Shown here: positions 2,373 to 2,594 of the stretch, piece after piece
How the letters are laid out: each line of letters begins with the position of its first letter
Numbering within the stretch: the stretch's first letter is position 1
Assembly (NCBI RefSeq): GCF_003334255.1
Contig: NZ_QOWU01000132.1
Source of the DNA: Escherichia coli
GTDB lineage: Bacteria; Pseudomonadota; Gammaproteobacteria; Enterobacterales; Enterobacteriaceae
Length of the DNA stretch: 2,594 nt
Reading direction: 5' to 3' (one strand)
Made by a program: the position numbers and the translations under genes
Notes under the pieces: generated by a model
Databases searched by the model: none
The model's input: only the letters and a program-made list of their open reading frames with translations
Told to the model about the DNA's origin: nothing

Positions 2373-2448
2373 GCCCTTTAGCTCAGTGGTGAGAGCGAGC
2401 GACTCATAATCGCCAGGTCGCTGGTTCAAATCCAGCAAGGGCCACCAT
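2373..2448 (+). tRNA. ileZ: tRNA with CAU anticodon, ileX/ileZ-like (probable tRNA-Ile2 decoding AUA via lysidine; elongator tRNA-Met not excluded)
   Basis: 76-nt cloverleaf traced by hand. Acceptor GGCCCTT/AAGGGCC (7 bp), D arm GCTC-AGTGGTGA-GAGC, anticodon loop CTCATAA (anticodon CAT at 2406-2408), T arm GCTGG-TTCAAAT-CCAGC, discriminator A, encoded CCA (2446-2448). Close to my memory of E. coli ileX. One A:C mismatch at the base of the anticodon stem (27:43). Symbol is by analogy with the Stx-phage ileZ-argN-argO cluster. Confidence 0.85.
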
Positions 2449-2455
2449 CACATAC

Positions 2456-2530
2456 CGCCATTAGCTCATCAGGAAAGAGCGCCAGCCTTCGAAGCTGGCT
2501 GCGCGGGGTTCAAGTCCCATAAGCGCTAAC
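2456..2530 (+). tRNA. tRNA-Arg-like (anticodon UCG) with non-pairing acceptor stem and weak T stem; possible pseudo-tRNA or 3'-disrupted tRNA
   Basis: Starts 7 nt after the first tRNA. Good D arm (GCTC-ATCAGGAAA-GAGC), good anticodon arm CCAGC-CTTCGAA-GCTGG (anticodon TCG at 2490-2492), T loop GGTTCAAGTCC. But the T stem CGGGG/CCCAT has two mismatches, the putative 5' acceptor strand CCGCCAT has no complementary 3' strand (AAGCGCT is found instead), and there is no CCA. The 3' boundary is uncertain. Confidence 0.5.
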
Positions 2531-2594
2531 TTAAGGGTTGTGGTATTACGCCTGATATGATTTAACGTGCCGATGAATTACTCTCACGATAACT

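Follow-up and report, generated by a model that had tools for sequence, protein, structure and literature searches.

IS186/IS421 splits the phage tRNA gene argN in a late-regulatory region of lambdoid type in Escherichia coli

The GenBank record of phage 933W (AF125520) places the tRNA genes ileZ (AUA), argN, and argO directly upstream of the Shiga toxin genes stxA2 and stxB2. A stretch of Escherichia coli DNA of 2594 nt, called the window here, ends in a tRNA cluster of the same kind and raises the question of what follows the tRNAs. An earlier reading of the sequence alone had seen two tRNAs, some 65 nt of further DNA after the second, and cargo just past the end, possibly a toxin. The second tRNA gene, argN, is in fact split inside its T arm, after position 2517, by IS186/IS421. 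The window very probably covers the part of a lambdoid, non-Stx E. coli prophage that regulates its late genes, and IS186/IS421 has entered the argN T arm there by transposition. The components are all of a known kind, namely a Q module of the lambda type, a tRNA cluster like that of 933W, and IS186 in a target site of consensus sequence. The names ileZ, argN, and argO were not found in a literature search and are taken from the 933W GenBank annotation.

Ahead of the tRNAs, the ORF list gives three co-oriented genes, which are a DUF968/YdfU-family gene (3' part only), rusA, and Q (Table 1). The coding sequence of the first gene starts 30 nt 5' of the window, and at the 100%-identical locus L002 PGAP labels it 'DUF968 domain-containing protein' (8971-10029). 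The order of Q, a lambda-like late promoter, tR', and 933W-type tRNAs is a genuine and previously known layout. The sequence-only reading had likened this order to the ileZ-argN-argO region of Stx phages, and the window is indeed collinear with pT-ileZ-argN of 933W.

Table 1. Features of the 2594-nt window, with position, strand, and basis of assignment
Feature	Position	Strand	Basis
DUF968/YdfU-family gene, 3' part (C-terminal HNH-like region)	1..1029	+	ORF; Pfam PF06147
rusA, RusA Holliday-junction resolvase	1030..1392	+	ORF; PGAP on identical locus; Pfam PF05866
Late-gene antiterminator Q, lambda-type, 273 aa	1407..2228	+	ORF; Pfam PF03589; Q-lambda homology
PR'-like late promoter and pause element	2234..2273	+	Alignment with lambda 44507-44629
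tR'-type intrinsic terminator, 7-bp GC-rich stem and T6	2309..2335	+	Terminator scan (2309-2328 and T-run); RNA fold
Putative tRNA promoter pT (TTGCGG, 17-nt spacer, TATTAT)	2334..2362	+	Collinear with 933W
ileZ-type tRNA-Ile2, intact, anticodon CAU	2372..2447	+	ARAGORN; Rfam; PGAP on identical sequence
argN 5' 63 nt, tRNA-Arg(UCG)	2455..2517	+	Identical to L002 11455-11517
Target-site duplication (11 bp), predicted left copy, GGTTCAAGTCC	2507..2517	.	Analogy with L016 and L019
IS186/IS421 (IS4 family) left end	2518..2594	+	77/77 identity to K-12 IS186A

The homology of the window Q to Q-lambda spans its N- and C-terminal regions. Searches against the Q-lambda structures give E=3.5e-40 for PDB 7UBM and E=3.1e-27 for 4MO1, and BLASTP gives 31% identity (E=3e-39), with gaps that add up to 68 residues in the cysteine-rich region. 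The zinc-finger region contains an insertion of 66-68 residues, which adds extra CxxCxGxG motifs. In the translation, residues ~117-217 carry four motifs of this type (CPCCYGEK, CPECGGKG, CKDCRGRG, and CQRCGGRG), compared with two in Q-lambda. The insertion is reminiscent of the cysteine-rich domain of DnaJ with its two zinc centres, and it has a faint match to Pfam PF00684. The exact Q protein is very common in E. coli, being found in 10,687 index blocks.

The alignment of the region after Q with lambda keeps the TTGA of the -35 element, GGTAAATT of the -10 element, and the AAC(G/A)ATGGG pause region. The corresponding elements of the window are TTGATT at 2234-2239, TAAATT at 2256-2261 with TGG before it, and the -10-like pause sequence AACAAT at 2268-2273. 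From established knowledge of lambda PR', we take this segment to be a PR'/pause module; a generic sigma-70 promoter scan did not flag the site. A weak Rfam match to Trp_leader was rejected, as it corresponds to the terminator hairpin only. The putative pT is conserved just 5' of ileZ, and its 933W counterpart is annotated 'pT; putative tRNA promoter' at 21082-21110 of AF125520. By analogy with this counterpart, the tRNAs may be expressed in part without read-through by Q, and strict Q-dependence is unsupported as far as the tRNAs are concerned.

The first tRNA gene is, judged by its sequence, a tRNA-Ile2 gene (CAU, ileX-like) and not a tRNA-Met gene. ARAGORN reads the anticodon as CAT, Rfam scores the gene at 72.5 bits (E=2.5e-15), and PGAP labels the identical sequence tRNA-Ile. 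It is identical at 68 of 76 positions to K-12 ileX (tRNA-Ile(CAU)), with the C4:G69 and C5:G68 pairs kept. The sequence is also that of the ileZ copy in L016 and, in alignment, of the 933W copy, which is annotated 'codon recognized: AUA'. On the minus strand, the reverse complement of ileZ (2372-2445) drew an Rfam match to the Plastid-ycf2 5'UTR at 36.3 bits against a gathering threshold of 65.7, which was judged to be tRNA mimicry. Matches to snoRNA, miRNA, and other weak Rfam models (E >= 0.3, well under their gathering thresholds) were dismissed.

The second tRNA gene has the Arg anticodon loop CUUCGAA and comprises 63 of the 77 nt of argN, without the 3' strands of the T stem and the acceptor stem. 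ARAGORN did not call it in the window, and Rfam gave only a local match of 31.2 bits over model positions 7-64. Folding of window 2455-2531 produced no acceptor stem (-24.7 kcal/mol, z=-0.8), and folding of the uninterrupted allele produced a full cloverleaf (-35.0 kcal/mol, z=-2.85). The uninterrupted sequence in L002 continues past the break as …GGGGTTCAAGTCCCCGATGGCGGTCCA, which completes a 77-nt argN with the anticodon TCG (ARAGORN and PGAP), and argO, a tRNA-Arg (TCT) gene, starts 13 nt after it. The 3' end implied by two complete tRNAs in the window (…CCCATAAGCGCTA) was rejected, as neither the acceptor stem nor the T stem forms. The window copy of argN would thus be unable to fold and is presumably a pseudogene, inactivated by the insertion; ileZ is intact. 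A tRNA cluster 3' of Q and tR', as first proposed, thus holds for the intact tRNA that comes after Q and the terminator but not for its incomplete neighbor.

The middle tRNA slot is often degenerate in close relatives. Six of ten contexts with an identical Q (L003-L012) have there an element that is called a tRNA by neither ARAGORN nor Rfam, which suggests that argN is dispensable. The element itself is 80 nt long (L003 11049-11128; also L004, L006, L008, L010, and L011, and in L001 from 9226). It has acceptor-, D-, and T-like stems, but where a tRNA has its anticodon arm there is a hairpin of 7 bp with a 3-nt loop.

The identity of the last 77 nt to the left end of K-12 IS186A (insL1) begins exactly at the terminal repeat. 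The 23-bp terminal inverted repeat, CATAAGCGCTAACTTAAGGGTTG, occupies 2518-2540. The ATG of the transposase (InsL), at IS position 56, falls at window position 2573, and the first 7 codons are inside the window. The gene is co-oriented with late transcription. Where other genomes match this segment, PGAP has annotated an 'IS4-like element IS421 family transposase'. Many E. coli chromosomes match window 1-2518 at 100% identity, and all such matches end at 2518. What had appeared to be a flank of about 65 nt after a finished tRNA is thus the end of an insertion sequence, and the immediate cargo is its transposase.

The position of the break agrees with the known specificity of the element. The target of IS186, 5'-GGGG(N6/N7)CCCC-3', is highly specific, as judged from 59 insertion sites recovered in a mutation-accumulation study, and the K-12 genome contains only 54 such sites (PMC5009759). 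The intact argN T arm, GGGG-TTCAAGT-CCCC, matches this target exactly, and across the break point the uninterrupted allele has the sequence GGGGTTCAAGTCCCC. The motif occurs nowhere else in the 20.5-kb L002 locus and at just one other place in the 40-kb L015 locus. IS186A of K-12 itself occupies GGGG-ATCACT-CCCC. The predicted left copy of the target duplication in the window rests on analogy with the duplications in L016 (GGTTCAAGTCC) and L019 (GGTTCGAGTCC), and the right copy lies beyond 2594.

At least four further prophage contexts carry IS186 at the equivalent place in the T arm, in both orientations and with target duplications of 10-11 bp. In L016 (NZ_CP148275), a reverse IS at 6054-7392 splits an argN with 4 substitutions; the duplication is GGTTCAAGTCC (11 bp), and the argN 3' end and argO follow. 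In L019 (NZ_CP135671), the IS421 transposase CDS (3225-4337, reverse) lies in an allele with a TCT anticodon, the duplication is GGTTCGAGTCC, and a holin gene comes ~440 nt later with no argO. The IMG/VR contig L013 has the allele of the window with the IS at 1868-3206 (reverse complement) in reverse orientation, an N at the far junction, and then a second pT-ileZ copy. The L001 type, found in about 8-10 genomes, has a forward IS (9292-10630) in a variant tRNA-like element, with the duplication GGGCGGGTCC and a collinear continuation. These insertions are independent events, since the allele, the orientation, or the duplicated sequence differs among them. The site, which conforms to GGGG(N6/7)CCCC, is thus a natural hotspot that IS186 has used repeatedly. 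The organization characteristic of IS186/IS421, a complete element of about 1.34 kb between target duplications of 10-12 bp, is seen in L016, L019, and L001. The literature search returned no report of IS186 in prophage tRNA genes or of its repeated use of this tRNA T arm. Two other features of L013 deserve mention. The N at its far IS junction suggests an assembly join, and on the minus strand of the locus (4018-5076) a gene for a 352-aa DNA methyltransferase (DPPY motif) separates tR' from pT/ileZ, which marks another variable insertion point 5' of the tRNAs.

The closest uninterrupted allele (L002/L015, NZ_CP098201.1) is 100% identical over window 1-2518 and has intact argN and argO without an IS. 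After argO, L002 carries a 43-aa DUF3927 gene, an antisense iraM-like gene (PmrD-fold), and a remnant of a DUF1737/NanS-p-type esterase. Next come a class II holin, a YdfR-family remnant, lysozyme, Rz, a TonB_C protein, and a lambda-like operon from terminase to tail fibre. The ten identical-Q contexts follow the same plan, some with a full 653-aa esterase. None of the ten has an IS at argN, and they served as uninterrupted comparators. No stx-type gene is present in the 11 relatives with the exact Q (L002 and L003-L012), which carry argO, small accessory genes, and the standard S/R/Rz set instead. The stx genes suggested for the downstream region were checked on these relatives only, and the suggestion fails there.

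Among relatives more broadly, the interval from the tRNAs to the holin may hold DUF3927 with the antisense iraM-like gene, TerB, a full or truncated NanS-p-like esterase, or stxAB. The interval is therefore variable and moron-bearing across lambdoid phages, as the notion of a moron site had proposed, and this lineage is non-Stx. Overall, the observation behind the sequence-only reading was partly confirmed and its interpretation partly supported.

Within this interval, the ~500-bp stretch between argO and DUF3927 (L002 11622-12120) contains an unannotated ORF, with a 117-aa version at L013 1739-2092. In L016 the same stretch holds a gene annotated as TerB-family. A small moron, whole or as a remnant, may therefore occupy this place. 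The iraM-like anti-adaptor gene (PmrD fold) is on the minus strand between the tRNAs and the esterase/holin (L002 12533-12868; L003 12130-12465). Six of its 111 codons are ATA, the codon read by ileZ.

Two readings would remove the insertion from the account, and both are extremely unlikely. One holds that the match to IS186 is chance or an assembly artefact and that the second tRNA is merely a diverged pseudogene. The exact argN::IS186 junction indeed had no match in the GTDB representative genomes or the JGI metagenome contigs. It was also absent from 5,426 complete E. coli genomes, where another allele, 93.8% identical, gave the best full-length matches. A short junction query returned only reverse-orientation cases from the complete E. 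coli genomes, and the IMG/VR search returned one contig, L013, again with the IS in the opposite orientation. Against chance or artefact, the perfect identity begins exactly at a terminal repeat, the break falls at a perfect target motif, and independent records with target duplications contain the same junction sequence with the IS reversed. The other reading keeps two complete tRNAs, a spacer of ~65 nt, and a Q-dependent toxin or new moron, such as stxAB, just past the window. Its attraction is that window 2332-2517 (pT, ileZ, and argN) is 94-96% identical to many Stx2 phages, in which stxAB comes after argO. However, similarity to Stx phages is confined to that segment, Q is lambda-type and not the 933W Q, the second tRNA has no 3' strands for its T and acceptor stems, and the spacer is IS186 throughout. 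The absence of stx-type genes from the 11 exact-Q relatives also speaks against a toxin.

A third possibility accepts the IS end but takes it for a solo remnant or for the border of an IS-mediated deletion or inversion, so that the late operon is detached and the prophage is decayed and cryptic. The loss of argO in L019, with the IS at the same site and the holin close behind, would fit such a rearrangement, as would the joining of the IS to a second pT-ileZ copy across an N in L013. Many other IS elements and pseudogenes in the relatives also fit. On the other side, the 77 nt visible in the window are perfectly intact, including the transposase start, and the insertions in L016 and L001 are simple, with a target duplication and a collinear continuation. 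We regard a remnant or rearrangement as unlikely. A bolder proposal concerns the recurrence itself. The T arm of the middle tRNA is used in at least five contexts and four tRNA alleles, and in the orientation of the window the transposase gene lies directly in the path of Q-antiterminated late transcription. Prophage induction could then cause a burst of transposase expression, or insertion at this site could be selected as a means of crippling or uncoupling the late operon. This proposal is very unlikely, and the repeated use of the T arm is better described as a modest observation than as a new system.

Under the preferred reading, a simple transposition of IS186/IS421 into argN, the sequence beyond 2594 can be predicted from the relatives. 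A complete IS, the duplication, the argN 3' end, and argO are expected because the insertions in L016 and L001 are simple; argO is present in the uninterrupted 100%-identical allele and after the IS in L016. The continuation would thus comprise the complete 1339-bp IS, the 11-bp duplication, the 3' 14 nt of argN, argO, the accessory genes, and S/R/Rz. In letters, the IS186 end CAACCCTTAAGTTAGCGCTTATG would be followed by GGTTCAAGTCCCCGATGGCGGTCCA (the duplication and the argN 3' end), by argO (GCGTTGTTAGCTCAGCCGGACAGAGC…), and by DUF3927, the iraM-like gene, and the holin.

The expression of this region can be modelled on lambda and 933W. Q would load on RNA polymerase paused at PR', and the polymerase would then pass tR' and transcribe the tRNAs together with the operon of lysis and structural genes. 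On its way, the Q-modified polymerase would cross IS186, which is co-oriented, and would probably go on to argO and the late genes. The tRNAs would be cut from the Q-dependent transcript or from a transcript that starts at pT, and the pT-like promoter may supply some Q-independent tRNA expression. ileZ would still be made, and the host enzyme TilS would convert its C34 to lysidine for the reading of AUA. An intact argN (UCG) would read CGA and CGG, and argO (UCU) would read AGA and AGG, all of them codons over-used across the prophage. The loss of argN would presumably be tolerated.

Codon usage was counted in the prophage genes of an uninterrupted relative (8,481 codons in late genes and 2,976 in early genes) and in 40 kb of K-12 as the host (11,717 codons). 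Per 1000 codons in host, late, and early genes, respectively, ATA occurs at 3.1, 6.8, and 11.1, AGA at 0.8, 4.5, and 7.4, AGG at 0.4, 3.8, and 11.1, CGA at 2.8, 4.2, and 6.0, and CGG at 5.5, 15.6, and 14.1. None of the five codons occurs in the gene for the major capsid protein. The tRNA set matches this prophage-wide codon bias and is consistent with the established idea of rare-codon supply. Rare-codon enrichment had also been proposed as a marker of downstream cargo, and in this role it was rejected. The early genes are at least as enriched as the late genes and the capsid gene lacks these codons, hence no special downstream cargo is marked; the enrichment extends over the whole prophage and is stronger in its early genes.

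An annotation of this region should show an argN pseudogene in place of the apparent second tRNA and an IS186 end in place of the 'empty' 3' flank. With regard to risk assessment, the prophages most closely related to this one are of non-Stx type. There is no evidence of a hidden toxin or a new moron, and the immediate 'cargo' is an insertion sequence. The GGGG-N7-CCCC T arm of a phage tRNA-Arg is a natural example of the target specificity of IS186 and represents one decay route for prophage tRNAs.

Compared with IS186A of K-12, the element in the window has the same left end, the same 23-bp repeat, and a GGGG(N7)CCCC insertion site, and it differs in having entered a phage tRNA gene, at the T arm. 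The uninterrupted allele differs from the window in its whole argN and argO and in the absence of the IS. The lambda Q/PR'/tR' module is similar in its homologous Q and in the alignment of the -10 element TAAATT and the AAC(G/A)ATGGG pause region. In contrast to lambda, the window Q has the cysteine-rich insertion of 66-68 residues, the terminator is only ~65 nt from the presumed start site, and tRNA genes come next, where lambda has orf-64 and S. The 933W cluster resembles that of the window in its position 3' of Q, PR', and terminators, in its location on the late-transcription strand, and in the conserved pT-like promoter. In alignment, ileZ is identical and argN is near-identical up to the T loop. 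On the contrary, the window has a Q of the lambda type in place of the 933W Q, its argN is interrupted by IS186, argO is outside the window, and its close relatives are without stx.
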